Below the pieces are notes generated by a model. That model did not search any database. It saw nothing but the letters and a program-made list of their open reading frames with translations, and was not told the DNA's origin. From Candidatus Cloacimonadales bacterium (lineage in GTDB: Bacteria > Cloacimonadota > Cloacimonadia > Cloacimonadales > JAFGVF01): a DNA stretch of 64,000 nucleotides. The position numbers and the translations under genes were made by a program. Positions 5,653-64,000 of this stretch are shown here, in pieces (positions within the stretch are counted from its first letter, which is position 1; every line of letters begins with the position of its first letter). Where the stretch lies: contig CAXXOU010000004.1 of assembly GCA_963677495.2 (NCBI GenBank), positions 320,001 through 384,000 of the forward strand, read 5' to 3'.

Positions 5653-5762
5653 TCCTGCATCAAAAGCCTTGAATCTCGCTTGTCCCTCCCTATGAAACCC
5701 TAAAGTTATCCACATCGTGTGCATAACTTTTTGCAGCGTGCAAATAGCTTCTTGAAGCGGGA
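5653..5762 (-). repeat. DnaA-box-pair repeat element, copy 1
   Basis: Reverse complement aligns to 45376-45487 but lacks two 11-bp units; TTATCCACA-TCG-TGTGCATAA at 5706-5726; imperfect terminal inverted repeats. Confidence 0.85.
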
Positions 5763-41432: not shown

Positions 41433-44400
41433 TTATTTCATCATAACAGCTTTTTCAACTGCAGTGAATCCGTTTGCTTCAACTTTAAAGAAGTAGATAC
41501 CACTACCTACACCTTCGCCATTCCAAGTTACAACATTGTTCTCTGATTCAGGAAAGTCTTTGTCTACAATAACAGACACAACTTCACCTTTTACGTTAAA
41601 GACAGTAACTTTAACATTTCCTGCTTTAGCAAGACTGAATGAAACAGATGTTGTAGGATTGAATGGGTTAGGGTAGATGCTATTGATTCTTGATGCAATC
41701 TGTGTATCAGGAACTTCGGGACCGTCACCATCTTCTGTAATCTCGATAGAGATAGGACCGTAGAATGAACTGATACCATCAATTGTCATACTTTCAAGCC
41801 AATAGTAGAAAGTTCCCATCTCGATAGCATCACTATCATCGTATGCGTAACTGTGAGTGCTTGATTGGTTGATTGCATTAATCATCTCACCATTAACCTG
41901 ATACTTATCTACTTCAGAGTCTGATTCAGCTCTGTAGATATTATAGCCGGCCATTGCAGATTCAGACTCAACAGTCCATTCAAGTCTAACAACTTTGTCA
42001 TCTTGAACTGTAAGAGTAGAAGCCGCAAATGCAGTAAGAGTTACTGGAAGAGGTTGGTAATCATTCTCATTTTCACCACCAGGTGTTGGGGATGGAACGA
42101 TTGTCCAATCGTTACTTACATTCTCTCCGGCATCTTTGTTTGTTCTTTCATAGATAGTACCGGCAATAGCACCACTAGTAGCTGAACCGAATTGGTCAAC
42201 AGTTCCCTTTGCAACACCATCGTCAAGAACTAACCATGAGCCATCAACTAGACTTGGTATAGGTAAAACAGATTGGAAATAAGTTCCTGTAAGCATTGGG
42301 TACATTAACTGCATTTCACCTTCAGTAACAGCACCAATAACCAAGTATTCACCTGGGTTAAGTGTCCCTGAAAGAGGAGATGGCATATCAGGTGCATATT
42401 GAATAAGATTCCAACCGGTTAAATCTTGTGCAGTATTACCTGCATTGTATAATTCAACATATTGTACAAGGTCTGTGCAAACTTCAGAGATAAAAACATC
42501 TGAATATGGTGCTTCTACGATGTCAGCAATGTTTCTTGCTGAAATGTATGCTCCATCAGTGCGTGAGTTCATGATACCTGTGATATTCATAGACTCAGAT
42601 GGGATAGCTGTTCCTATATATTCTACATCATAGAACGTTGTACGGAAATTATAACTATTAACTCCATCAGAAATAGCGTAAACAGTACCGTTTGCAAAAG
42701 AACCGGTATCTGAGAAAGTTACTCCATTAACAGTAACAACCTGAGCTTCATACATCTCAAAGTTAGCTGTAAGGTCAGCCAGAGTTACAACAGCAGGAGT
42801 AATTGAAAGACCTGTGTTTGAAGCTGCACCAGGATCTGAAACAGGAATAAACTGTAACATTCCACCGTATGAGCTAAGAGTACCACAAAGACCTGTGATA
42901 CCATCATTTACATTGTAGGCAGTTGTAATATTTCCACTATTATCATCAATAAGGATACCGGCTGTAGCATCTTGAACATACTTTTGACCACGATATGTTT
43001 GTTGATAAGTAAGAACAGCTTCACCTGTAAGACAGTAGATAGTACCATCTGTAGCACCTGTTCTAAGAGTAGCGATATCAGCTACATTTACTATATTTAC
43101 AACAGTGTAGTCATAAGTTGAACTTGTAGTTGTTGCAGGTTCAGCATTTGCATCTATTGCAACGATTTCATAATATACAGTAGTTCCACCAACTTGAGCA
43201 GGGATGTCTGCTTCATAAGTAGCTCTGCTAAGTGTCATTGCTACATTGTTAGTCATTGCATCAGAAGCGAGACCCCAGTTAAGAGTAGCAGAAGTTAAAC
43301 CATCATCATCTGTAATGTCAGCAGTAACTGTAACAATATCTGTGGCTTCCGGTGTTTCAGGAGTGTGAGCTATGTTAGCAATCACCGGAGCTGGGTTAGC
43401 TGCCGGTGGAGGTGTTGGCTGACCAAGATTAGAAATATCATCATTTGCCATAACAGTCCACTGTGAATCTGTAGCATTAGTACCTGATGAAGCTGCCCAA
43501 TCAGTGGTGGCTGCACCGGTAGTTTTACGAAGAAGTGTATGATTTGCAGTTGCATCAGTTTCACCTGCAACATCCCAACCTGAACCCGGGTCTGCACCTT
43601 CATCACCAACAACATCAACGAGAGTGCCATTGTACACAAGACCCATTGCATCGTCACCATTAAAGTAACAAACAGAAGTTCCAACTAAGTCTGAAAGTGC
43701 TTGAATCTCTGCACTTGCACTTGAGTTACAAACAACATATACATCTCCCGGTGCTAATGTCCCGGATAATGTTACAGCATTTCCCGAACCTTCAACAGCC
43801 CAGTCACCACCATTCGAAATACGCCAGAACTCTACGAAACCAAGGTTCACATTTGTCTCACCGGCATTATAAATTTCAATAGCTTTGTTGTTTGAAGAGC
43901 CTTCAATGTACTCACTGATATAAATATCAGCAGGGCCGGCAACTGAGAAGTCATACAATTCAGTTGCTATTGAACTAGTGTGATAATTTGTAAGATAAGC
44001 AATAGCTTTAACAGTTGTTGTGGTATCGATATTTAGAGCTACTGAATATGGAGTAGAAGCATCTGTTGGGTCTGTTCCATCTAATGTATAATAAATAGAT
44101 GCACCGGCAGTAGAACAACTGATTTCAACAGTTTGAGCAGTATCAAAGATTCCACCTTCAGGTGAAATTGAAGGAGTTGCTACTGTAGGCATTACTACAT
44201 CATAGTTTCTCTCTGAGCTTTCTTCCGTATTGGTATCATTATCAGTTGCAGAAACAGTATAATATACAGTAGCACCATCAGCTTGAGCAGGAATAGTTCC
44301 AGCATATACATCACCTGCATCGATAGACATTGACACTTCATTAGTTAAAGAACCGGTAGAAAGTCCCCAATTGATTTTAGCTGAAGTGATAGTTCCTTCA

Positions 44401-45032
44401 TCAGTGATTGTAGCAGAGACAACAACATCATCCATTTGTGTTGGATTTGTAGGAAGGTGTGAAACACCTGAGATCACAGGGGTAGTAGAAGCACCACCAC
44501 TATAATCCGTTACAGTCATGTCATCGATTAAAAGTCTTTCCTTATCTTGAATATTTCTGATTCTAAAGAAAATATCATCACCTGAGATATTAGCTGTTTC
44601 TGAATACTCAACATAAGTTGTAGAAGTTGGGAATACAGAAGAACCGATCGCTGTCCAATCGCCTGCTGTTCCACCAATTTGATATTCTACGATAAACTCG
44701 ATAGGTTCACTTGGAACGTTTCCGTCCCAATGTCTGTACCAGAATGAGATAGTTCCAATACCACCATCTTTACCGTTTCCATCCAAACCTTTGAAAAGAA
44801 GGTATTCCATAGTAGAACTTGAATCATCATTAAATCTAACTGCGTTGCCGGAACGTGCATAAGTAGAATGCACCATAGCATTATTGTTTTCCCAATGTCC
44901 GACACCCGTGTGTTCATAAGTTACAACACCGGCATAAGAACCATCAGACCAGCCATCAAAATTCTCAGTGAAGTCTGCAAACAGAGCTAAACTGAAAACT
45001 GTAATTACTAAAAGAAATAAGATTTTCTTCAT
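41433..45032 (-). CDS. Large secreted protein: shared N-terminal domain, Ig-like repeats, chitobiase C-terminal-like module, two lamin-tail-like domains, OB-fold-like region, CTD; no nuclease domain
   Basis: Signal peptide; IYYTLDGTDP; ISEYIEGSSNNKAIEIYN; ISEV...YVELYN; IYPNPFNP...KAVMMK. Confidence 0.85.
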   Translation of the reverse strand: MKKILFLLVITVFSLALFADFTENFDGWSDGSYAGVVTYEHTGVGHWENNNAMVHSTYARSGNAVRFNDDSSSTMEYLLFKGLDGNGKDGGIGTISFWYRHWDGNVPSEPIEFIVEYQIGGTAGDWTAIGSSVFPTSTTYVEYSETANISGDDIFFRIRNIQDKERLLIDDMTVTDYSGGASTTPVISGVSHLPTNPTQMDDVVVSATITDEGTITSAKINWGLSTGSLTNEVSMSIDAGDVYAGTIPAQADGATVYYTVSATDNDTNTEESSERNYDVVMPTVATPSISPEGGIFDTAQTVEISCSTAGASIYYTLDGTDPTDASTPYSVALNIDTTTTVKAIAYLTNYHTSSIATELYDFSVAGPADIYISEYIEGSSNNKAIEIYNAGETNVNLGFVEFWRISNGGDWAVEGSGNAVTLSGTLAPGDVYVVCNSSASAEIQALSDLVGTSVCYFNGDDAMGLVYNGTLVDVVGDEGADPGSGWDVAGETDATANHTLLRKTTGAATTDWAASSGTNATDSQWTVMANDDISNLGQPTPPPAANPAPVIANIAHTPETPEATDIVTVTADITDDDGLTSATLNWGLASDAMTNNVAMTLSRATYEADIPAQVGGTTVYYEIVAIDANAEPATTTSSTYDYTVVNIVNVADIATLRTGATDGTIYCLTGEAVLTYQQTYRGQKYVQDATAGILIDDNSGNITTAYNVNDGITGLCGTLSSYGGMLQFIPVSDPGAASNTGLSITPAVVTLADLTANFEMYEAQVVTVNGVTFSDTGSFANGTVYAISDGVNSYNFRTTFYDVEYIGTAIPSESMNITGIMNSRTDGAYISARNIADIVEAPYSDVFISEVCTDLVQYVELYNAGNTAQDLTGWNLIQYAPDMPSPLSGTLNPGEYLVIGAVTEGEMQLMYPMLTGTYFQSVLPIPSLVDGSWLVLDDGVAKGTVDQFGSATSGAIAGTIYERTNKDAGENVSNDWTIVPSPTPGGENENDYQPLPVTLTAFAASTLTVQDDKVVRLEWTVESESAMAGYNIYRAESDSEVDKYQVNGEMINAINQSSTHSYAYDDSDAIEMGTFYYWLESMTIDGISSFYGPISIEITEDGDGPEVPDTQIASRINSIYPNPFNPTTSVSFSLAKAGNVKVTVFNVKGEVVSVIVDKDFPESENNVVTWNGEGVGSGIYFFKVEANGFTAVEKAVMMK

Positions 45033-54564: not shown

Positions 54565-54787
54565 TTACCTCCCAAATTCTGTGTCATCATAGTGCCCTAT
54601 TACTGCTCTTTATTAAGAACTTACTTCACACGTCACTGATGTTATGAACATGATGTGGATAACTTTGGCCTTCGCCAAGGAGGGTCCTTGGTGGCTCCTT
54701 GGTGGGTCCAATGTAATTCCATGTTTTAAATGGGGTAAATCATAGTCTGGATGGTGTGGCGAGTAATGGTGAGTAACTGGGAGGTAA
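54565..54787 (+). repeat. DnaA-box-pair repeat element, copy 4 (diverged)
   Basis: TTACTGCTC..TTAAGAACTT resembles the left end of copy 3; TTATGAACA-TGA-TGTGGATAA at 54642-54662; 11-bp units at 54675, 54686, 54697 and 54708; outer inverted repeat TTACCTCCCA/TGGGAGGTAA. Confidence 0.8.
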
Positions 54788-54821: not shown

Positions 54822-54850
54822 AAAGAGCTTGCTGGGAATAACAAGCTCTT
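54822..54850 (-). terminator. Intrinsic terminator
   Basis: AAGAGCTTG...CAAGCTCTT. Confidence 0.65.
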
Positions 54851-54876: not shown

Positions 54877-57800
54877 TTATTTCATTAGAATGGCTTTTCT
54901 AGTTACTGCTTTGTTATTAGTAATCAGTTTAAAGAAATAGATACCTGAACCACATGGAGTTCGTTTAGAATCTTCTCCACTCCATTCGATAGAGTAATTA
55001 CCGGAAGGTAAATGACTATCAAGTAAAGTAACTACTTTCTGACCTTTCATGTTAAAAACAGAAATCTCAATATTTGTATCATTTTTAAGAGAATACTCTA
55101 TCGTTGTAGATGGGTTGAATGGATTTGGGAAAACTGAGTTTATTGAAGTCACTAACACTTCAACTTCAGGAGTATCTCCTCCATCAAATTCACCAACTTT
55201 AACATAAGCAGGGCCATAAAGATCTATTCCACCGGAGATTGAAACAGCTTCTATCCAATAGTAATAATCTATTCCAAGATACACTTCTGTATCTATAAAT
55301 GAATAATTGTTTCCACTAGTGCCATTTAATGCATCAATAGATGTGTTTAGTAGCGTTGCATCGATATAATTATCAGTTATGTTTCTGTAGATACGGAAAT
55401 GTGACAAATCACTCTCAGTTTCTGTCTTCCATTCAAGACCAACTGACTCTTCATTAATTGCTGTTGCTAGCATATAACTAAATACAACCGGTAGCGCATT
55501 TTGATCATTATTTAGAGGATTGAAGTTATCTTCAGAAGGTGTTCCTGTAGTGTCACCTGAAGCTTCAGCCCACTGAGTATCAATTTCTGAACCATCAGTA
55601 TCGGCATCAAGTCTCTCATAAACTTTATCTTTCTGGATTGTGTTTGTGGCTGAGCCCATTCTATCAACTATCGCTTTAGCTTGGTTATCATAAAGCTCAA
55701 AGTATTCTTCTCCATTAATTTGAGGTGCTCCAGCGCTGTTTGAACCATCAACAAAGTAGTTTCCGGTAAAAGCAGGGAATGTTGCTAACAAGTCAGATAA
55801 AGTTCCTCTTATTAATATGGCAAACTCTCCCGGTTGTAATGGATAATCACCAGTCATATTTGTTACTAAATCGGTATTAATAGTATCATCAAGGACTGTA
55901 GTTTGTGATGAATTATACTGTACAATTGACCAACCTCTTAGATTCTGAACCAGATTACCTGCATTATAGATTTCTATATAGCTTGCATTGTAATCTGCGG
56001 GATCACAGACTTCAGTGAAAATGACTTTAGATGCAACCTGCTGTTCTTCTGTTACTATGTATGATAATTCAGAGGAAACTGTTTCATCTGTATCATCATC
56101 AGTAGCTGAAACAACATAATAAACTGTTTCGTTTGCTACTTGAGCAGGTATGATCCCAGTAAATGTATCTCCTGTATCAATAGCCATAGAAACAGTATTG
56201 GTTAATGAACCAGATGTTAACCCCCACTGGATTTCTGCAATAGCAATTGTGCCATCAATATCAGTAATATCGGCACTAACTGTAACTGACTCTGTATTGT
56301 CAGGGTTTGTAGGAGAGTGTGATATGTTTACAATAGTTGGAGTTTGATTAGATGTAGGCTCTGAAACAGTTACTGTTGCAGTATCTGTATGAGTACCTCC
56401 ATCATTATCAGTGACACTCAACGTAACTGTAGTTGTTCCGAGAGGAAAGCTTCTTGTTATAGATTCACCACTAGCATTTTGTGCTACTTTTGTTGTTTTA
56501 GCTCCCATTGTGTGAGAACCGAGATATGTAGCAGTATCGGAGGCATATCCATCCCATTCTGCAGAAGGATCGAATGCATCTGAGCCATCAGAATCACCAG
56601 AAGTAACTGTTGATTTTCTTACTAAAGTTGCATCTGCTGTCCTTGTTGGAGAAATACCCCAAGCTGAACCCGGGTCAAAGCCTATTTGCCCAATGCAATC
56701 AATAAGCGTACCATTATTAAGAAGAGTGATAGTATCATCACCATTGAAATTAGTGACAGCTGATGTTTCATCGACAACAAAACCTGTTAATGCACCACTT
56801 GAGTTACCAATTATGTAAACAGTACCATCTGCAAGTGAACCGCTTAGGGATAAATTTTGACTTGGTGACAGAGCACCATTAGAGTATAAATGTACTGAAT
56901 ATGTAGAAAGATCTATAATACTACCTGTACCATTATAAATCTCAAGATATTTATTGTTTCCTGAACCTTCAACATATTCGCTAAAGAAAAGATCAGATGC
57001 TGCACCACCACCGGTTTGACCATCATCCCATGTCCATTCATAAGATACTATTGCACCATCAGAATCTGTAGAACCAGATGCATCAAGTGTAACATCTGCC
57101 CAACCGTCTAAATCAACGTCAATTGCCGAGTAGGAAGTACCTGCATCTGCAATTGGATCAACGTTTGGAGTAACGGGTTCAACTAAGTCTGCTTCATAAC
57201 GAGGATTAATATCGAAAACACTGTAGGAATAATTAACCACACCTGTTACTGAGCTAAAATCGTCACCAATCTGGGGATCAGGTGTAACCATATAGAAAAG
57301 ATCGTCTATTTCACACGCACCAGAACCGTCATTAACATCCCATTGGTTGTATCCATCAGGGATATCAGATACAGTAACATTTTGGACCTGAACAAGTACA
57401 CCTTCATACTGCTCTTCCAAAGCGTTAGTAGCAATAACCGTTGGAGAAGGTAGTGTATTACCAAAACTATCTACAGTATAAGCACTAACAGATGTAATTC
57501 TTGTGAAATTATAATATTCTTCTACAGTACCGGTAATTGAAACTTCATCACCTTCAGATGGTGAGTTGATTGCATCATCTACATAAACTCCGTTCCATGC
57601 TCCACCAACAGCACTACTAATGAAATATCCATCAGTGTTAGATGCTGTAACAATCCCGCTTGTAGATACTGTTTGACCTGCATATGGAGAAGCATCATTT
57701 GTGACAGGGTCAGATATATACTGTATATCATAAATTGTTACATCAGTTGCCGGTGCATCACCCCAAATAGTACTAACCCATTCCGGGTGATCTATGAAAG

Positions 57801-59268
57801 GATTTCTGTTACCTTGATAACCTTCGATTACATCATTTCTATTCAGTTCAAAACTATCAACCGGATCTTGTACGTGCCATAACAGCAGAGTTGAAAGCTT
57901 TCCATGTTCTCCGTAACCTGTGAGTCCATTATCATTATTTTCAGTATTAACTTGATCAACTATCTCTAAATCCGGTTCACCAACTTGCCCTGGGACATCT
58001 CCCTCATAACGAGTAGCCATATAGAAGATAATCCTAGCAATGTCACCTTTTACAGCGTCTCTTGGCTCCCAAGAATCGCTATCAGTATAGTTGCCGGGCG
58101 CATCAGTAACTTCAGTACCACCGTTATCAAAATCTTTATTGCTTCTGGTCGAATTAATATTAGACTGACAAGGTTTCAAATTGTGCATATCAGACCCTGC
58201 AGGAGCTGTAGTGCTGAACTCTCCATGTGATTTAGCCCAAACATGCTCTTTTGAGCTAACAGAATACTCTGAATCACCTGTATACACTTCAATAACTTTA
58301 CTGGAATTGTTAGGATCAGCATCACTTACCATAAGGTATGGATTAAGGCTTGTATAACTATAGGTTGAATGATTATCAATTAAATCATGCAATTGACTCT
58401 TAAGAGCTGAGCCTGTTGTTGCAGTGATTCCAGCATAGTAATCAGGATTAGCACTAACTGTAATATAATCAGTTTTTAGCTCAACATCCGCTGTACGCGC
58501 AGCTGAATCTGTAACAGTGAGTTTCACACTATATGTACCTTCAGAACTATATGTGAATGATGGATTCTGAGTGGTTGAATCATTTGTAGAATCATTCTCG
58601 AAATCCCAGGCATATGTATATGGAGGAGTACCACCGGATGTAGCATCAGTAAAGTTTACAGTTAAAGGAGCTGTACCTGTAGTAACGTTAGCACTGAAAG
58701 CAGCAGTAAGTGAGTTTCCACTACCACCAAAATCTGTAATTGAAATATCATCAATTAGCAGGCGTTCTTTATCTTGAACATTGCTGATTCGGATAAATAT
58801 ATCATCACCTGATAAATCTACAGCTTGAGAGTATTCTGTGTATGTTGTTGAAGTAACATTAACTGTTGAGCCGATAGCAGTCCAGCTACCTGTAGTACTA
58901 CCGATTTGGTATTCAACGGTAAACTCAATTGGTTCACTCGGGACATTACCGTCCCAATGCCTATACCAGAATGAGATTGTACCAATACCATTATCTTTAC
59001 CATTTCCATCCATACCTTTGTAAAGAAGATACTCTAAGGTAGAACTTGAATCATCATTAAACCTTATAGCATTCCCAGATCTGGCATAAGTTGAGTGACT
59101 CATAGCATTGTTATTTTCCCAATGTCCACTTGTAGGACTCTCATAAGTCACAATTCCACCATAACTTCCATCAGACCAGTCATCAAAATTCTCTGTTATT
59201 GATGCTAACATAATTGAACTTAAAATTACGAACAAAAGAATAGTTATAACTCTTTTCATCAATTTCAT
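54877..59268 (-). CDS. Large secreted endonuclease I (His-Me finger, Vvn/Bsn-like) with PKD, OB-fold-like, lamin-tail-like domains and CTD
   Basis: KEHVWAKSHG, DMHNLKP..SNINSTRSN, WEPRDAVKGDIAR..FYMATRY, RNDVI..YQGNRNPFIDHPEW; PKD YAWDF; VFPNPFNP...KAILMK. Confidence 0.9.
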   Translation of the reverse strand: MKLMKRVITILLFVILSSIMLASITENFDDWSDGSYGGIVTYESPTSGHWENNNAMSHSTYARSGNAIRFNDDSSSTLEYLLYKGMDGNGKDNGIGTISFWYRHWDGNVPSEPIEFTVEYQIGSTTGSWTAIGSTVNVTSTTYTEYSQAVDLSGDDIFIRISNVQDKERLLIDDISITDFGGSGNSLTAAFSANVTTGTAPLTVNFTDATSGGTPPYTYAWDFENDSTNDSTTQNPSFTYSSEGTYSVKLTVTDSAARTADVELKTDYITVSANPDYYAGITATTGSALKSQLHDLIDNHSTYSYTSLNPYLMVSDADPNNSSKVIEVYTGDSEYSVSSKEHVWAKSHGEFSTTAPAGSDMHNLKPCQSNINSTRSNKDFDNGGTEVTDAPGNYTDSDSWEPRDAVKGDIARIIFYMATRYEGDVPGQVGEPDLEIVDQVNTENNDNGLTGYGEHGKLSTLLLWHVQDPVDSFELNRNDVIEGYQGNRNPFIDHPEWVSTIWGDAPATDVTIYDIQYISDPVTNDASPYAGQTVSTSGIVTASNTDGYFISSAVGGAWNGVYVDDAINSPSEGDEVSITGTVEEYYNFTRITSVSAYTVDSFGNTLPSPTVIATNALEEQYEGVLVQVQNVTVSDIPDGYNQWDVNDGSGACEIDDLFYMVTPDPQIGDDFSSVTGVVNYSYSVFDINPRYEADLVEPVTPNVDPIADAGTSYSAIDVDLDGWADVTLDASGSTDSDGAIVSYEWTWDDGQTGGGAASDLFFSEYVEGSGNNKYLEIYNGTGSIIDLSTYSVHLYSNGALSPSQNLSLSGSLADGTVYIIGNSSGALTGFVVDETSAVTNFNGDDTITLLNNGTLIDCIGQIGFDPGSAWGISPTRTADATLVRKSTVTSGDSDGSDAFDPSAEWDGYASDTATYLGSHTMGAKTTKVAQNASGESITRSFPLGTTTVTLSVTDNDGGTHTDTATVTVSEPTSNQTPTIVNISHSPTNPDNTESVTVSADITDIDGTIAIAEIQWGLTSGSLTNTVSMAIDTGDTFTGIIPAQVANETVYYVVSATDDDTDETVSSELSYIVTEEQQVASKVIFTEVCDPADYNASYIEIYNAGNLVQNLRGWSIVQYNSSQTTVLDDTINTDLVTNMTGDYPLQPGEFAILIRGTLSDLLATFPAFTGNYFVDGSNSAGAPQINGEEYFELYDNQAKAIVDRMGSATNTIQKDKVYERLDADTDGSEIDTQWAEASGDTTGTPSEDNFNPLNNDQNALPVVFSYMLATAINEESVGLEWKTETESDLSHFRIYRNITDNYIDATLLNTSIDALNGTSGNNYSFIDTEVYLGIDYYYWIEAVSISGGIDLYGPAYVKVGEFDGGDTPEVEVLVTSINSVFPNPFNPSTTIEYSLKNDTNIEISVFNMKGQKVVTLLDSHLPSGNYSIEWSGEDSKRTPCGSGIYFFKLITNNKAVTRKAILMK

Positions 59269-59400
59269 TGCTCCTTCGTACTTAGATTAACATGCCTAAA
59301 CGCCAGAGAATTGGAAGAATGTCAAGAATTTGTAGGTTTGTAATGGAATCAAATCAAATGATAATAATGCAATCATATGGTATTGCGATAATTACAAAAT

Positions 59401-59437
59401 AAAAAAGTTTGTGTTAGGGGAACACAAACTTTTTTTG
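59401..59437 (-). terminator. Intrinsic terminator between the two nuclease paralogs
   Basis: AAAAAAGTTTGTGTT-AGGGG-AACACAAACTTTTTT. Confidence 0.8.
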
Positions 59438-59461
59438 CTAAGTATATGAAGCGATTAGAGG

Positions 59462-62400
59462 CTATTTAAGAAGCATTGCCTTTTTGACATTGCTTGTTTT
59501 TCCTGCTTGCATACGGAATAGATATACTCCACTGGCCACAGGCTTGTTGTAAGAATCAGTGCCATCCCAGTAGACATAGTGATGACCGGCATCGAAACCT
59601 TGCTCAATAAGAGTTTTAAGCTTTTGCCCTTTCAAATTAAAGACATCAATTTTGACTTCCTCCGGATTCTTAACAGAGAAAGTTACTCGAGCAGTAGGAT
59701 TGAATGGATTGGGATAAACATTGCATAGTCCTGTAAACAGAGCTAGAGGTTGCTCTTCCAGAATATCATCATGGTCAATCACCACAACTGATGGTCCGTA
59801 GAATGTCGATTGTCCATCGATTTCTATAGTATTAATCCAGTAGAAATATTTGTTTCCAGGAAGCACTTCTTGGTCTAAGAAAGAATAATTACTTCCATTA
59901 GTATCATTACTTGCATTAATCATAGTATTGAATTGTTCTGCTGAAGATAAATCAGGATCAGACTCATCATCAATCCTCATTACTTGCCTCAAAATTCTAA
60001 ATCCTGAAAGGTCTTTTTCAGAGGCAGTTGTCCAGTTGATATTAATGAATAAATCTTCTGTAGATTCGCAATAGAAAGAGGCAAAAGTTACAGGTAAAAC
60101 TGATTGGTCATTATTGAGCAGTGTTTGATTCTCAGCACCAGGAGTACCTGTTGCATCTCCTCCTATATCACTCCAATCAGAGCTTAAGTTTGAGCCATCA
60201 GATTCTGCATCAATCCTCTCATATGTATGACTATTTAGAATTGTACTTGTAGAAGAACCTATGGCATCTGCTAGACCTTTACTATCGGTGCTGTCATATA
60301 ATTCATAATATTCACCACCATCGACATATGGTACTCCATCCGTGGTTGTTCCATCAACAATGTACTTTCCTGCGTAGGCACCATAATAACTTGAGAAATT
60401 ACTTAAAGTTCCATTTATTACAATCAGATATTCTCCGGGGAAAAGTGTAAAGTTCTCATCCATGTTTGTAACAATATTGTTATTTACATCAGGATTAAAA
60501 ACCGTTGATCTTTCTGAATTATATTGTCTAATCTCCCAATCAAGTAATGAAACGGGAGCACTACCGGCATTGAATAACTCTATAAATGCAGCATTACTTG
60601 TTGAAGGCTCAGTGATTTCAGAGAATATTATGTTTGAATCACCATAATAACCAATATCAACATACTGGACAGCTGTCTGAGCTTCGGCCGGTTCATCATT
60701 CTCGGCAATCACAGTAAAGAAAACTCTTGAGCCTGCAGTCTGACCATTAATTGTAGCCCGATATTCACCATTACCGATCAATTGCATAGGTACAACATTT
60801 GTCATTTGAGCAGCATTAAGTCCCCAATTGAGTTCAGAGTTTGTTATGTTTCGATTTTGATCTATATATGCTACGATAGTAATGTTCTGCCTATGTTTGG
60901 GAGATGCCGGATGGTATGAGACATCGTATATTACTGGTGGGTTAGATCCGTTACCTTCATTAATCATAACTCTTGTTGTGTCAACCGATGATGCACCATG
61001 ATTATCATAAACTGTAAGATATACGTTCGTAATTCCTAATGGAAAGTCATGAGTTATAGTTTCACCATATTCTTGAACAACTGTTCTCTTAACCCTTTTC
61101 GCTCCTATCGCATGATTCCCTAATGAACCAGGATTATCATAAATCCCTTCTTCCCATTCGTTTCCGTCATAAAGATTACTTCCATGATAAACTTCCGGTT
61201 TCCTTATCAATGAGATGTTTCGACCCCAATTCACATCACCATTGATACCAACAAAATCTATTGTTTCTCCTGTATCATTACGGATTAATCTAATTTGATC
61301 ATCTCCAGAAAAATACATCATATTATTGCTAGTTGGGAAATCCCAATCATATTCATATGCAAGATCGCTGTTACTTCCATTCCTGTCGTATACAATAACA
61401 AATGTTGAATATGGCATAACCTGACCTGTTAGATCAAGAGTATATCGGAAATTACCATTGCCTGAACCATCCCTTTCTAGAGTATAGTTGCTCAAATCTA
61501 TAACTGAAGTTGTTCCGTTGTACAACTCGATTGCTTTACGATATGAACTACCCTCATAATATTCAGAAATGAAAATTTCATCTACAGTTCCTGCGTTTAC
61601 ATTTTCTGTCCAAGACCACTCCCAGATACCAATCGAACCATCAGAATCATAACTTTGTGATCCGTTAAGTGTAATATTACACCAGCCATCTTCATCAGCA
61701 TCATAACATACGATATCATCACCTGCATTAGCAATTGGAGGATAATTTACAGCGTTTAATAAATCGTCTTCACTTCTAGGTGCTAAGTATGCTTGAACTC
61801 GATCATTAATATATACTGAGATTATTCCTTGATAAATATCTCCGGGATTTAACCCATGATTATAAAAGATGCTACCAATATAACCTGAGCCGGTTGAATC
61901 ACTTACAAAAACTAACCTATCTGAAAGATTATCATCAGGATTAACAGTAATGTCATTAATTTGAACTAGAGTTGACTCATATACTTCAGATAATTCAGCT
62001 AACGAAATTAGATAAGGGGAAATCGCATTGTTAGTTGATATAAGAGTGCTTTCAAAAATGTTAACTAAAGATGTTACACCATCTATTTCATCCACATAAG
62101 CAGTTATAATTAACTCATCTCCAACCGAATAACCTTGTAAATCAGTACTAACATATATACCTGACCAAGGACCTCCTGCAATATCCTGTAAATAGAAGCC
62201 ATTACTGTCTATAGCAGTAATGTAACCTTGTACTTTCACATATTGTCCCAACATGTCAGAAGCGTCATTATTGAAGTCTAATACCATTTGTATATTCATG
62301 ATTGAAGTAGTTGGAAAGAATATTGGTTCTACCCATTCAGGATGATCAATAAAAGGATTCCTATTGTTTTGGTAACTGTATATAACATTATTCCTTCTAA

Positions 62401-63814
62401 TTTCAAAATCATCCACAGGATCTTCAAGATGCCATTGAAGTAATGTTGAAAGTCTTCCATACTCTCCATAACCTGTGTCATCATTTCCATCAGTGTCCAA
62501 ATAATCTTTTAAAACTAAATTTGGCTCTCCAGAATAGTTTGTATGAACATCTCCGGCATATCTTACATCCATATAAAATAGAATTCTAGCAACATCACCT
62601 TTAACGGAATCATGTGGTTCAAAAGTATCTTTATTATCGTTTTTAAAGTTTCCAGGAGCATCTTCTAACTCGGAACCACCTTCATCAAAGTCATATCGAT
62701 CACCATTTTCTGACACATCTCTGTCAGCAGGTTTTAAATTGTGCAAATCTCCAAAAACAGGTTCATCATATTTGAAAGAACCATGATATTCATTCCATAC
62801 ACATTCAACATCATCATAGCTATCTGATTCAAGACCGGAATACATCTGCCTAATCATTCCTTCGCTATATGGTGATGCATCAGATAAAGCTAAAGCTTCA
62901 TCTATTTCATTATCATAATATGAGTATGAAGTGTGGTCATCTATAATATCATGAATCTGGTTCCTTAAATCCTCACCTTCAGTTGCTGTAACTGTAGCAT
63001 AATAATCTGAAACTAGTATATATTCTCTTTTAATTACTTCACTAGGTTCGTGACCGGAACTATCATTAACCAATAGCTTAACACTTTGATACCCTTCAGA
63101 GCTATATGAATAAACTGGATTATCAATTGAAGAATCAATAACGCCATCATTATTAAAATCCCAATGATATGAATAGGGTGGAACTCCTCCGGTGACATTA
63201 CTGCTGAACTGAATGAAATCCGATTGTGTTACCAAGTTTGAATTTGAGAAAAAATCTATTGATAATGGTGCAATACCACCACTGTAATCTGAAATTGACA
63301 TGTCATCAATGAAGAGCCTTTCCTTATCTTGAATTGTCCTTATTCTAATAAAAATATTATCCCCAGGTAAGTTTGCATTATAACTATACTCATGATAATT
63401 GGTATCATTGGATAAAACGACGGAATACCCTAACTGTGTCCAAGCACCATCTAAACTTTGGTATTGATATTCTACTACAAACTCTATAGGTTCTCTATAG
63501 TTGCCATCATAGTGTCGATACCAGAAACTGATAGTTCCAATGCCATTATCTTTACCCCCGTTATCCATCCCTCTATAAACTAGGAGTTCTTCGGTATTTG
63601 ATGAATCATCATTGAAATTAATGGCATTCCCTGATCTAGCTCTAGATGAACGACAGCGAGCGTTATGGGTATCCCAGAATCCGGTTTCGCTAGAATAGTA
63701 TTGTTTGTAGTTTCTATAACTACCATCATAAAAATCGTTAAAATCTTCAAATACGTCAGCAACTAAGAACATAGCATAAACAGCAAAAGTAATTAGCATT
63801 AGCTTCTTTTTCAT
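59462..63814 (-). CDS. Large secreted endonuclease I-like paralog with degenerate active site, PKD, OB-fold-like, lamin-tail-like domains and CTD
   Basis: Same architecture as its neighbour; VECVWNEYHG replaces KEHVWAKSHG; DVSENGD replaces NINSTRSN; scaffold VKGDVARILFYM..RY and NRNPFIDHPEW retained; VYPNPFNP...KAMLLK. Confidence 0.87.
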   Translation of the reverse strand: MKKKLMLITFAVYAMFLVADVFEDFNDFYDGSYRNYKQYYSSETGFWDTHNARCRSSRARSGNAINFNDDSSNTEELLVYRGMDNGGKDNGIGTISFWYRHYDGNYREPIEFVVEYQYQSLDGAWTQLGYSVVLSNDTNYHEYSYNANLPGDNIFIRIRTIQDKERLFIDDMSISDYSGGIAPLSIDFFSNSNLVTQSDFIQFSSNVTGGVPPYSYHWDFNNDGVIDSSIDNPVYSYSSEGYQSVKLLVNDSSGHEPSEVIKREYILVSDYYATVTATEGEDLRNQIHDIIDDHTSYSYYDNEIDEALALSDASPYSEGMIRQMYSGLESDSYDDVECVWNEYHGSFKYDEPVFGDLHNLKPADRDVSENGDRYDFDEGGSELEDAPGNFKNDNKDTFEPHDSVKGDVARILFYMDVRYAGDVHTNYSGEPNLVLKDYLDTDGNDDTGYGEYGRLSTLLQWHLEDPVDDFEIRRNNVIYSYQNNRNPFIDHPEWVEPIFFPTTSIMNIQMVLDFNNDASDMLGQYVKVQGYITAIDSNGFYLQDIAGGPWSGIYVSTDLQGYSVGDELIITAYVDEIDGVTSLVNIFESTLISTNNAISPYLISLAELSEVYESTLVQINDITVNPDDNLSDRLVFVSDSTGSGYIGSIFYNHGLNPGDIYQGIISVYINDRVQAYLAPRSEDDLLNAVNYPPIANAGDDIVCYDADEDGWCNITLNGSQSYDSDGSIGIWEWSWTENVNAGTVDEIFISEYYEGSSYRKAIELYNGTTSVIDLSNYTLERDGSGNGNFRYTLDLTGQVMPYSTFVIVYDRNGSNSDLAYEYDWDFPTSNNMMYFSGDDQIRLIRNDTGETIDFVGINGDVNWGRNISLIRKPEVYHGSNLYDGNEWEEGIYDNPGSLGNHAIGAKRVKRTVVQEYGETITHDFPLGITNVYLTVYDNHGASSVDTTRVMINEGNGSNPPVIYDVSYHPASPKHRQNITIVAYIDQNRNITNSELNWGLNAAQMTNVVPMQLIGNGEYRATINGQTAGSRVFFTVIAENDEPAEAQTAVQYVDIGYYGDSNIIFSEITEPSTSNAAFIELFNAGSAPVSLLDWEIRQYNSERSTVFNPDVNNNIVTNMDENFTLFPGEYLIVINGTLSNFSSYYGAYAGKYIVDGTTTDGVPYVDGGEYYELYDSTDSKGLADAIGSSTSTILNSHTYERIDAESDGSNLSSDWSDIGGDATGTPGAENQTLLNNDQSVLPVTFASFYCESTEDLFININWTTASEKDLSGFRILRQVMRIDDESDPDLSSAEQFNTMINASNDTNGSNYSFLDQEVLPGNKYFYWINTIEIDGQSTFYGPSVVVIDHDDILEEQPLALFTGLCNVYPNPFNPTARVTFSVKNPEEVKIDVFNLKGQKLKTLIEQGFDAGHHYVYWDGTDSYNKPVASGVYLFRMQAGKTSNVKKAMLLK

Positions 63815-64000
63815 TGTAGCCTCTATATAATATCATTTTTTTGCTTAATTAAATAATTTAATTTTTTCAATTACCAAACCGCAATCAATTTATGGATAAG
63901 GAGTTAGGATGTCAAAACAATTATTTCAATGAGTGACAAATTATTTTACAATCTTATATATATCATTATCTTAAGCATAATAACTTTTTTTGGCGATTGT

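Follow-up and report, generated by a model that had tools for sequence, protein, structure and literature searches.

Why would a bacterium keep a large secreted nuclease-like protein whose catalytic residues have been replaced, and does such a protein still hold nucleic acid? The question is raised by two neighbouring genes in a 64,000-nucleotide stretch of Candidatus Cloacimonadales DNA (assembly GCA_963677495.2, contig CAXXOU010000004.1, positions 320,001 to 384,000), hereafter called the window and used with its own numbering. The first-pass annotation of the window had described two adjacent proteins of about 1450 aa with the same domain order, an endonuclease I and an apparently dead paralogue, and had proposed that the dead copy may bind, tether or protect extracellular nucleic acid, within a surface system for the capture and degradation of extracellular DNA. 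In the present study, we termed these genes A (the intact enzyme) and B (the paralogue) and compared them with each other, with their orthologues and with the wider endonuclease I family. The pairing of an enzyme with a pseudoenzyme was borne out: B has lost the general-base histidine and the metal-binding asparagine in all three orthologues, and its gene is under purifying selection. The proposed role in nucleic-acid capture was not.

Catalytic site of A and B

Both genes lie on the minus strand, and their products align from end to end with 41% identity (1490 columns) and an identical domain order, with the open reading frames where the annotation had placed them (Table 1). In A, a signal peptide is followed by an N-domain, a PKD domain, the nuclease, tandem OB folds, a second PKD domain split by an LTD (lamin-tail domain), an immunoglobulin (Ig)-like domain, a further LTD and a C-terminal domain of the T9SS (type IX secretion system) type. 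Pfam matched the PKD domain, Endonuclease_1, two LTDs and the T9SS-type C-terminal domain in both proteins. Alignment to Endonuclease_1 (PF04231), the check suggested by the annotation, placed both domains above the curated cut-off of 25 bits, with 116 for A and 99.5 for B.

In Vvn, with which the domains were compared, His80 is reported as the general base and Glu79 as a cation contact, and the metal is usually bound by an Asn of the helix (PMC5758888). A carries the full Glu-His-Asn (E-H-N) triad (E341, H342, N372). In B the strand-1 glutamate (Glu337) is retained, the general base has become Cys338 and the metal-binding Asn has become Ser368; the codons annotated for the histidine of A and the cysteine of B were exact. 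The motif N.N..RSN that the annotation had recognised is indeed present in A, and the magnesium ligand could be refined to its second asparagine, N372, which corresponds to Ser368 in B. The triad is kept in 453 of 476 deduplicated family domains, a sample taken from matches and loci found with B as query and biased toward B-like matches, so its loss in B is not due to chance. A third endonuclease I gene of this genome, on contig C3, is intact.

A search of 41 related genomes for B found a 61% identical domain in one of them, G003 (the genome of the window being G000), where the B orthologue stands directly upstream of the A orthologue in the same B-A order. A protein search gave a third orthologue, P0158, and the three are 49-71% identical overall. 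Their base position is occupied by Cys, Cys and Ser, and their metal position by Ser, Thr and Thr. The annotation had named retention of the histidine in all close orthologues as the sign of strain-specific decay; both other orthologues lack the histidine and the asparagine alike. Together with contigs from three runs of one sample (probably the source sample, and not independent), which match 57500-63900 without differences, these residues rule out sequencing error or strain decay as the cause of the changes. An invariant cysteine nucleophile was also ruled out, as the third orthologue carries Ser.

The lost residues have been accompanied by a fixed new set. D335, N341, E342, Y343 and R373 are common to all three B sequences and occur in 0.7, 0, 0, 0 and 0.4%, respectively, of the 453 intact domains. 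The helix positions +4 and +8 are D/A/G and F/F/L in B and thus provide no conserved substitute metal ligand. Fixed differences between A and B amount to 6/49 in the active-site segment against 57/1290 elsewhere (p=0.024, for a region picked post hoc). The AlphaFold model of the B domain, with a predicted local distance difference test (pLDDT) score of 93.4, keeps the two strands and the helix of the beta-beta-alpha element, and superposes on Vvn in VIA-align with Z 17.2 and a root-mean-square deviation of 2.2 over 166 aligned residues. These findings indicate that B very probably does not cut nucleic acid.

It may be asked whether B is instead a rewired enzyme, in which Tyr343 would replace the histidine, Glu337, Asp335 and Ser/Thr368 would hold the metal and Arg373 would stabilise the phosphate, perhaps of a small phosphodiester. 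PacI is reported to have a loop tyrosine instead of the histidine (PMC5714182) and NucB a glutamate in its place (PMC5758888), and the invariance of Tyr343, Asp335 and Arg373 in B, with Glu337 retained, would suit such a design. The helix asparagine is lost, however, with nothing conserved at +4 or +8 to replace it, and mutation of the equivalent residue is reported to abolish NucB activity (PMC5758888). Nor is the base position constant, being Cys in two orthologues and Ser in the third, and the B domain evolves faster than that of A (see below). We therefore consider a rewired enzyme improbable.

Selection on B

Between G000 and G003, the proportion of synonymous sites that differ (pS) in B is 0.70 in the domain and 0.76 overall, and that of nonsynonymous sites (pN) is 0.27 and 0.35. 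Since silent sites are saturated (pS 0.65-0.87), the ratio of nonsynonymous to synonymous rates (dN/dS) that the annotation had suggested for the dead copy was unusable and was discarded; pN against pS and a simulation of frame survival were used in its place. With pN below pS, purifying selection stands. Under neutral simulation with substitutions alone, the frame remained intact in 0/200 runs at 0.05 changes per site. Among 57 family columns conserved at 90% or more, 47 are retained in all three B sequences.

Conservation within B is highest in the pseudo-nuclease domain, with 61% identity (140/228) against 47% (569/1198) for the remainder in one comparison (p=1e-4) and 77% against 70% in a second (p=0.026). 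The corresponding values for A are 77-84% and 53-68%. Across orthologues, the nuclease domain is thus 61-77% identical in B against 77-84% in A, and that of B evolves faster; judged from these identities, constraint on the B domain is relaxed, not gone. We conclude with very high confidence that B is maintained by selection.

Nucleic-acid binding by B

The second part of the question is whether the dead copy still grips nucleic acid. The annotation had noted an OB-fold-like region after the nuclease, and in A this region was modelled as two OB domains (pLDDT 97, Z 10-11 each) resembling the OB folds of RPA, the AspRS anticodon-binding domain and MCM; a sequence search of the region against the PDB gave no significant match. 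The first OB hairpin carries an aromatic residue at its tip in 84/84 non-B homologues (36/36 among homologues below 60% identity) and in 0/3 B sequences. The aromatic of the second OB hairpin is found in 70/76 non-B homologues and again in 0/3 B.

The cleft of the nuclease domain has changed as well. A cleft lysine (Lys346) is kept in 386 of the 453 intact domains and is Glu in 3/3 B, and two cleft arginine positions, basic in 453/453 intact domains, are both lost in the B of this genome. Local charge of the cleft is -7, -3 and -2 in the B sequences against 0 to +1 in A. The charge of the whole domain (A -22, B -37, family median -19) is weak evidence, as A is acidic too. The parallel losses in two modules of B, cleft and OB folds, argue against DNA capture, and the annotated role of binding, tethering or protecting extracellular nucleic acid is not supported.

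We tentatively prefer, as plausible though short of probable, a reading in which B is a selected, dispensable, secreted pseudonuclease that serves as a surface scaffold or adhesin and whose remodelled cleft takes a ligand other than polymeric nucleic acid. B would be an old duplicate of A, which alone of the two holds the full triad. The frame and fold residues of B have been kept across species whose silent sites are saturated, its cleft carries the fixed new residue set and its OB module is without the family aromatics. Export would run through Sec and a T9SS-like route for both proteins, which would be transcribed separately. A would feed the cell by cutting DNA or RNA outside it, its OB module gripping the strand, and B would form a rod-like scaffold or adhesin, useful yet dispensable and not required by A.

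Several observations weigh against this reading. The other two B orthologues are basic at both arginine positions, and Arg373 has been gained in 3/3. Tyr343 lies near Trp85 of Vvn, a contact to the DNA backbone, in an alignment made by eye from the Vvn numbering around His80, so that some nucleic-acid binding by B is possible. The local charges of these two orthologues, -3 and -2, are not unusual for intact domains, whose median is -1 and whose 5th percentile is -4. That the OB aromatics and cleft residues grip nucleic acid is itself presumed from knowledge of these folds. B stands directly upstream of A in both genomes with known context (2/2), an adjacency that could reflect partnership or a mere origin by tandem duplication. 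Finally, the B type is known from three sequences only, seemingly of one genus.

The basic positions, the gain of Arg373 and the kept B-A order would suit a non-catalytic binder, one that holds DNA or RNA outside the cell by capture or tethering and passes it on to A, as would the recurrence of non-canonical domains beside intact ones in other lineages and the reports of dead His-Me fingers that still bind, namely Smad MH1 and the ENPP nuclease-like domain (PMC5714182). Apart from the residue losses given above, such a binder is at odds with the separate terminator and promoter-like site of A, with the lack of a transporter gene among the immediate neighbours of the pair, and with the one-contig genome G001, where A is present and B was not found; on the same grounds the proposed capture and degradation system was not upheld. 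Better candidates for capture than B are secreted relatives in this genome that have no nuclease domain and keep the OB tyrosine. We consider B unlikely to be a nucleic-acid binder.

Two such nuclease-free relatives were observed in this genome, at 41433-45032 of the window and at G000:C1:948843-954998. They have an A-like N-domain (77-78% identity, with 70% to A also obtained for the first of them), LTDs and DUF5689-type OB modules in which the first hairpin tyrosine is retained. For A itself, the substrate need not be DNA because RNase Bsn belongs to the same Pfam group (PMC5714182), and A could act on RNA as well as DNA.

Distribution of B and its relation to A

When 232 genomes of the phylum were searched (expect value 1e-42), a B-type match was found only in G000 and G003, and among 59 distinct endonuclease I domains of the phylum the two non-canonical ones are both B. 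No B orthologue was seen among the best 80 of 559 confirmed metagenome loci, and no further one among shorter proteins (30-796 aa, B domain as query, top 8000 candidates). B was not found in G001, a congeneric genome in one contig (98% complete) that has A. Nor was it found in G002 (83% complete), where an A-type gene is preceded by the terminator element and by what appear to be the last codons of B; this leftover suggests, by inference from the remnant, that B was deleted there.

Slow decay would account for these absences and for the G002 remnant: selection would be confined to the remaining domains or to such folding as export requires, the cleft residues would be shared by descent and the gene would be in course of loss. 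The long branch of this genome's B and the low identity of its OB (33-36%) and Ig (22-26%) regions to its orthologues are in keeping with this. Decay is nevertheless difficult to reconcile with a pseudo-nuclease domain that is better conserved than any other part of B. A domain of no use could also simply be removed, and the nuclease-free relatives have none. Furthermore, separate tandem endonuclease I genes (two or three) taken as a control have all triads intact in 8/8 loci, so duplicates do not as a rule decay. Decay is, in our estimate, very improbable.

B could also be a protein partner, regulator or decoy of A, which pairs with A or absorbs inhibitors or proteases. It shares the architecture and export route of A and adjoins it in both genomes with context; 13/19 multi-domain proteins combine a non-canonical domain with an intact one in the same chain, and 0/19 are without an intact domain; and pseudoenzymes in general offer precedents. 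This reading is quite unlikely in view of the persistence of A without B in G001, the separate transcription signals of the two genes, and P0158, for which no A-type partner was found at 30-796 aa (B domain, top 8000) or at 804-2561 aa (A domain).

Two observations on the related genomes may be added. In the A orthologue of G003 (L021:3785-8245), the N-domain shares just 23-29% identity with those of the other A and B proteins, the remainder being 51-77% identical to A, so that its N-domain has likely been swapped. Upstream of A in G001, L022:8727-9050 holds a short CRISPR-like array of four exact 36-nucleotide repeats about 73-75 nucleotides apart and one degenerate repeat; a cas gene was not seen beside the repeats.

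Non-canonical endonuclease I domains in other lineages

Domains without E-H-N number 23 of 476: the three B-type domains, 19 in multi-domain proteins, and P0067, likely a split piece of P0253, as the contigs of the two are equal in length. The 19 are spread over 13 of 19 multi-domain proteins, and 20 of the 23 lie in a protein, or likely piece of one, that has an intact copy. Proteins with three endonuclease I domains belong to Bacteroidia/Bacteroidota. In these Bacteroidia proteins the first domain is intact and later ones read E-L or E-D or have lost the Asn. The T9SS proteins observed with two or three such domains are L130-L132, P0001, P0003, P0152-P0157, P0250, P0251 and P0253.

In a 97-row tree built without the motif columns, the canonical/non-canonical label requires 5 changes, and a joint clade of B and the Bacteroidia dead domains was rejected by the approximately unbiased (AU) test (p-AU 0.011, 33 rows). 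A single common origin of all dead domains was ruled out by the tree and the AU test. The tree points to at least four origins, one of which (P0038) sits on a long, unsure branch.

Both arginine positions are basic in 20/20 non-canonical domains other than B and an extra Arg is present in 18/20; the cleft lysine is lost here too. Because the arginines are kept and mostly one is gained, the Bacteroidia domains would suit the binding-module idea of the annotation better than B does. Seven domains of the form E-D..N may be active, by analogy with NucB, which uses an acidic base. It is a possible though doubtful generalisation that secreted endonuclease I domains, next to a copy that stays active, have repeatedly given up cutting or been rewired. 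They would have become Arg-rich fused binders in Bacteroidia and, here, an entire paralogue with a reconstructed cleft (Asp, Cys/Ser, Asn-Glu-Tyr, Arg) that serves either a new ligand or phosphodiesterase activity of a His-less, Tyr-based kind.

Transcription signals, export and genomic surroundings

The genes are separated by their own terminator, as annotated: a hairpin at 59401-59435 with a 15-bp stem and a U-tract. The surrounding conserved element, with its 25-nucleotide spacer, is 96% identical in G003 even though silent positions in the two genes have reached saturation, and copies with stem changes stand upstream of A-type genes in G002 (contigs C76 and C79; 89% and 80%). An Rfam search of 59200-59520 gave 7 matches, all far under the gathering scores. 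The element is possibly a small RNA or a regulatory element tied to the promoter of A. A TTGACA hexamer lies 65-72 nucleotides before the start in 5/5 A-type loci of four species (measured in this genome to the second Met), where about 0.01 would be expected per 40 nucleotides.

Signal peptides of A and B were read from their hydrophobic N-termini, and the T9SS sorting domain TIGR04183 scored 41.9 bits in A and 29.5 in B against a cut-off of 23. A genome search for two components of the T9SS machinery gave an SprA_N match just over its cut-off and a PorV match, and tblastn with the C-terminal domain gave 172 matches in the genome. Taken together, these matches point to a T9SS-like export route with many cargoes. 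It is reported that T9SS may occur in Cloacimonadota (PMC11285876).

Table 1. Positions of the A/B locus and associated features in the window
Feature	Position	Strand	Remarks
Nuclease-free relative	41433..45032	-	shares N-domain, LTDs and OB module keeping hairpin Tyr
Terminator-like hairpin after A	54823..54850	-	
Gene A, secreted endonuclease I	54877..59268	-	1463 aa
A tandem OB-fold module	57184..57741	-	
A Tyr585/586	57511-57516	-	tip of first OB hairpin
A endonuclease I domain	57760..58446	-	aa 275-503, intact E341-H342-N372
A Asn372 codon	58153..58155	-	metal ligand, equals Vvn Asn127 (alignment to Vvn chain numbered 19-228)
A His342 codon CAT	58243..58245	-	general base, equals Vvn His80 (role reported in PMC5758888)
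TTGACA before A	59320..59325	-	promoter-like
Conserved element of about 80 nucleotides	59389..59470	-	B end, stop, spacer, A/T-flanked terminator hairpin
Gene B, paralogue predicted catalytically dead	59462..63814	-	1450 aa
B tandem OB module without hairpin aromatics	61760..62308	-	loop 62072-62095
B pseudo-endonuclease I domain	62312..63001	-	aa 272-501, Vvn fold
B Ser368 and B-type invariant Arg373	62696..62713	-	Ser368 (codon 62711-62713) replaces metal-ligand Asn
B-type signature W-N-E-Y-H-G	62780..62797	-	N341, E342, Y343
B Cys338 codon TGT	62801..62803	-	replaces His
Sigma70-like match upstream of B	63887..63915	-	best of region, 10/12

The neighbouring genes are of housekeeping type and encode an aminotransferase, Maf and an amidohydrolase, and in G003 a GLUG-motif protein with the C-terminal domain. 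B is divergent from genes read as rsmG, parA and parB (G000:C4:384278-386508, beyond the end of the window), and from these gene names A and B may be situated close to the origin of replication. A dispersed intergenic repeat at 54565-54751 (also at 5706, 32802 and 45410) has 34 blastn matches in the genome and occurs in G001. The palindrome pattern of its core was counted 69 times on both strands; we take this palindrome to be two inverted DnaA-box-like 9-mers.

Within the proteins, the second PKD domain of A (aa 700-975) and of B (aa 692-955) is seemingly split by an inserted lamin-tail domain; Pfam matches its first part only, and the split was read from the sequence. Most clusters matched in an Atlas search with the N-domain are unnamed; leads to Cleaved_Adhesin and F5/8-type domains came up at 0.90.

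Discussion

B is real and conserved, and it is narrower and less system-like than first proposed. With it, the few known inactive His-Me fingers gain a class that is bacterial and secreted. Automatic labels of 'endonuclease I', as on P0002 and P0158, hide such dead copies, given the 23 of 476 domains that depart from the canonical triad. In addition, the pair, with losses in two modules of one member, is a natural experiment on the nucleic-acid-holding residues of the cleft and of the YhcR/ExeM-type OB folds. Its reach is limited by the few sequences from seemingly one genus and by the dispensability of B.

Both domains match the endonuclease I family (PF04231; His-Me group 9, with Vvn, Dns, EndA and RNase Bsn), in which LTD and Ig-like companions are reported as typical (PMC5714182), as in A and B. 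In contrast to the group, B is without the general-base His and the metal Asn, and A and B are multi-domain T9SS-type proteins of about 1450 aa and not small periplasmic enzymes. No inactive member of group 9 is named in the available parts of the His-Me review (PMC5714182), and neither an inactive endonuclease I paralogue nor this locus was found in the open-access literature. Smad MH1 and the ENPP nuclease-like domain are alike in having kept the fold, lost the catalytic histidine and been retained by selection; they are eukaryotic, however, and binding of DNA or substrate has been reported or suggested for them (PMC5714182), whereas B is a full-length bacterial paralogue beside its active sister and has lost the OB aromatics too.

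PacI (Tyr; PMC5714182) and NucB (Glu; PMC5758888) also have the histidine replaced, and B has an invariant loop tyrosine; on the level of sequence, Tyr343 is found in 3/3 B and 0% of the 453 intact domains. NucB is reported to retain and need its helix Asn (PMC5758888), whereas B has Ser or Thr there. ExeM and YhcR resemble A and B in combining an LTD with tandem OB folds, with partial matches to NF033680 and NF033681 far under cut-off; the whole-protein ExeM/NucH profiles gave 38.4 and 20.7 bits, short of the cut-off of 300. The OB region is reported to be needed for ExeM activity (PMC6085458). Their catalytic domain is of the endonuclease/exonuclease/phosphatase (EEP) type, in contrast to endonuclease I here, and no dead paralogue is described for them in the parts of the literature at hand.

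In Bacteroides thetaiotaomicron, ddbABCDEF is described as encoding secreted nucleases for exogenous DNA, with the non-catalytic DdbE proposed as a substrate binder (bioRxiv 10.1101/2025.03.18.642099). The words 'inactive' and 'endonuclease I' do not occur in the available portion of that text (bioRxiv 10.1101/2025.03.18.642099). The ddb locus has a TonB-dependent transporter, unlike the A/B pair with its separate signals and no transporter adjacent. The Bacteroidia two- and three-domain proteins resemble the pair in that an intact domain is accompanied by copies without the His or the Asn, with the cleft lysine lost; they differ from it in that these copies lie within one polypeptide, arose independently of B and have kept their arginines.

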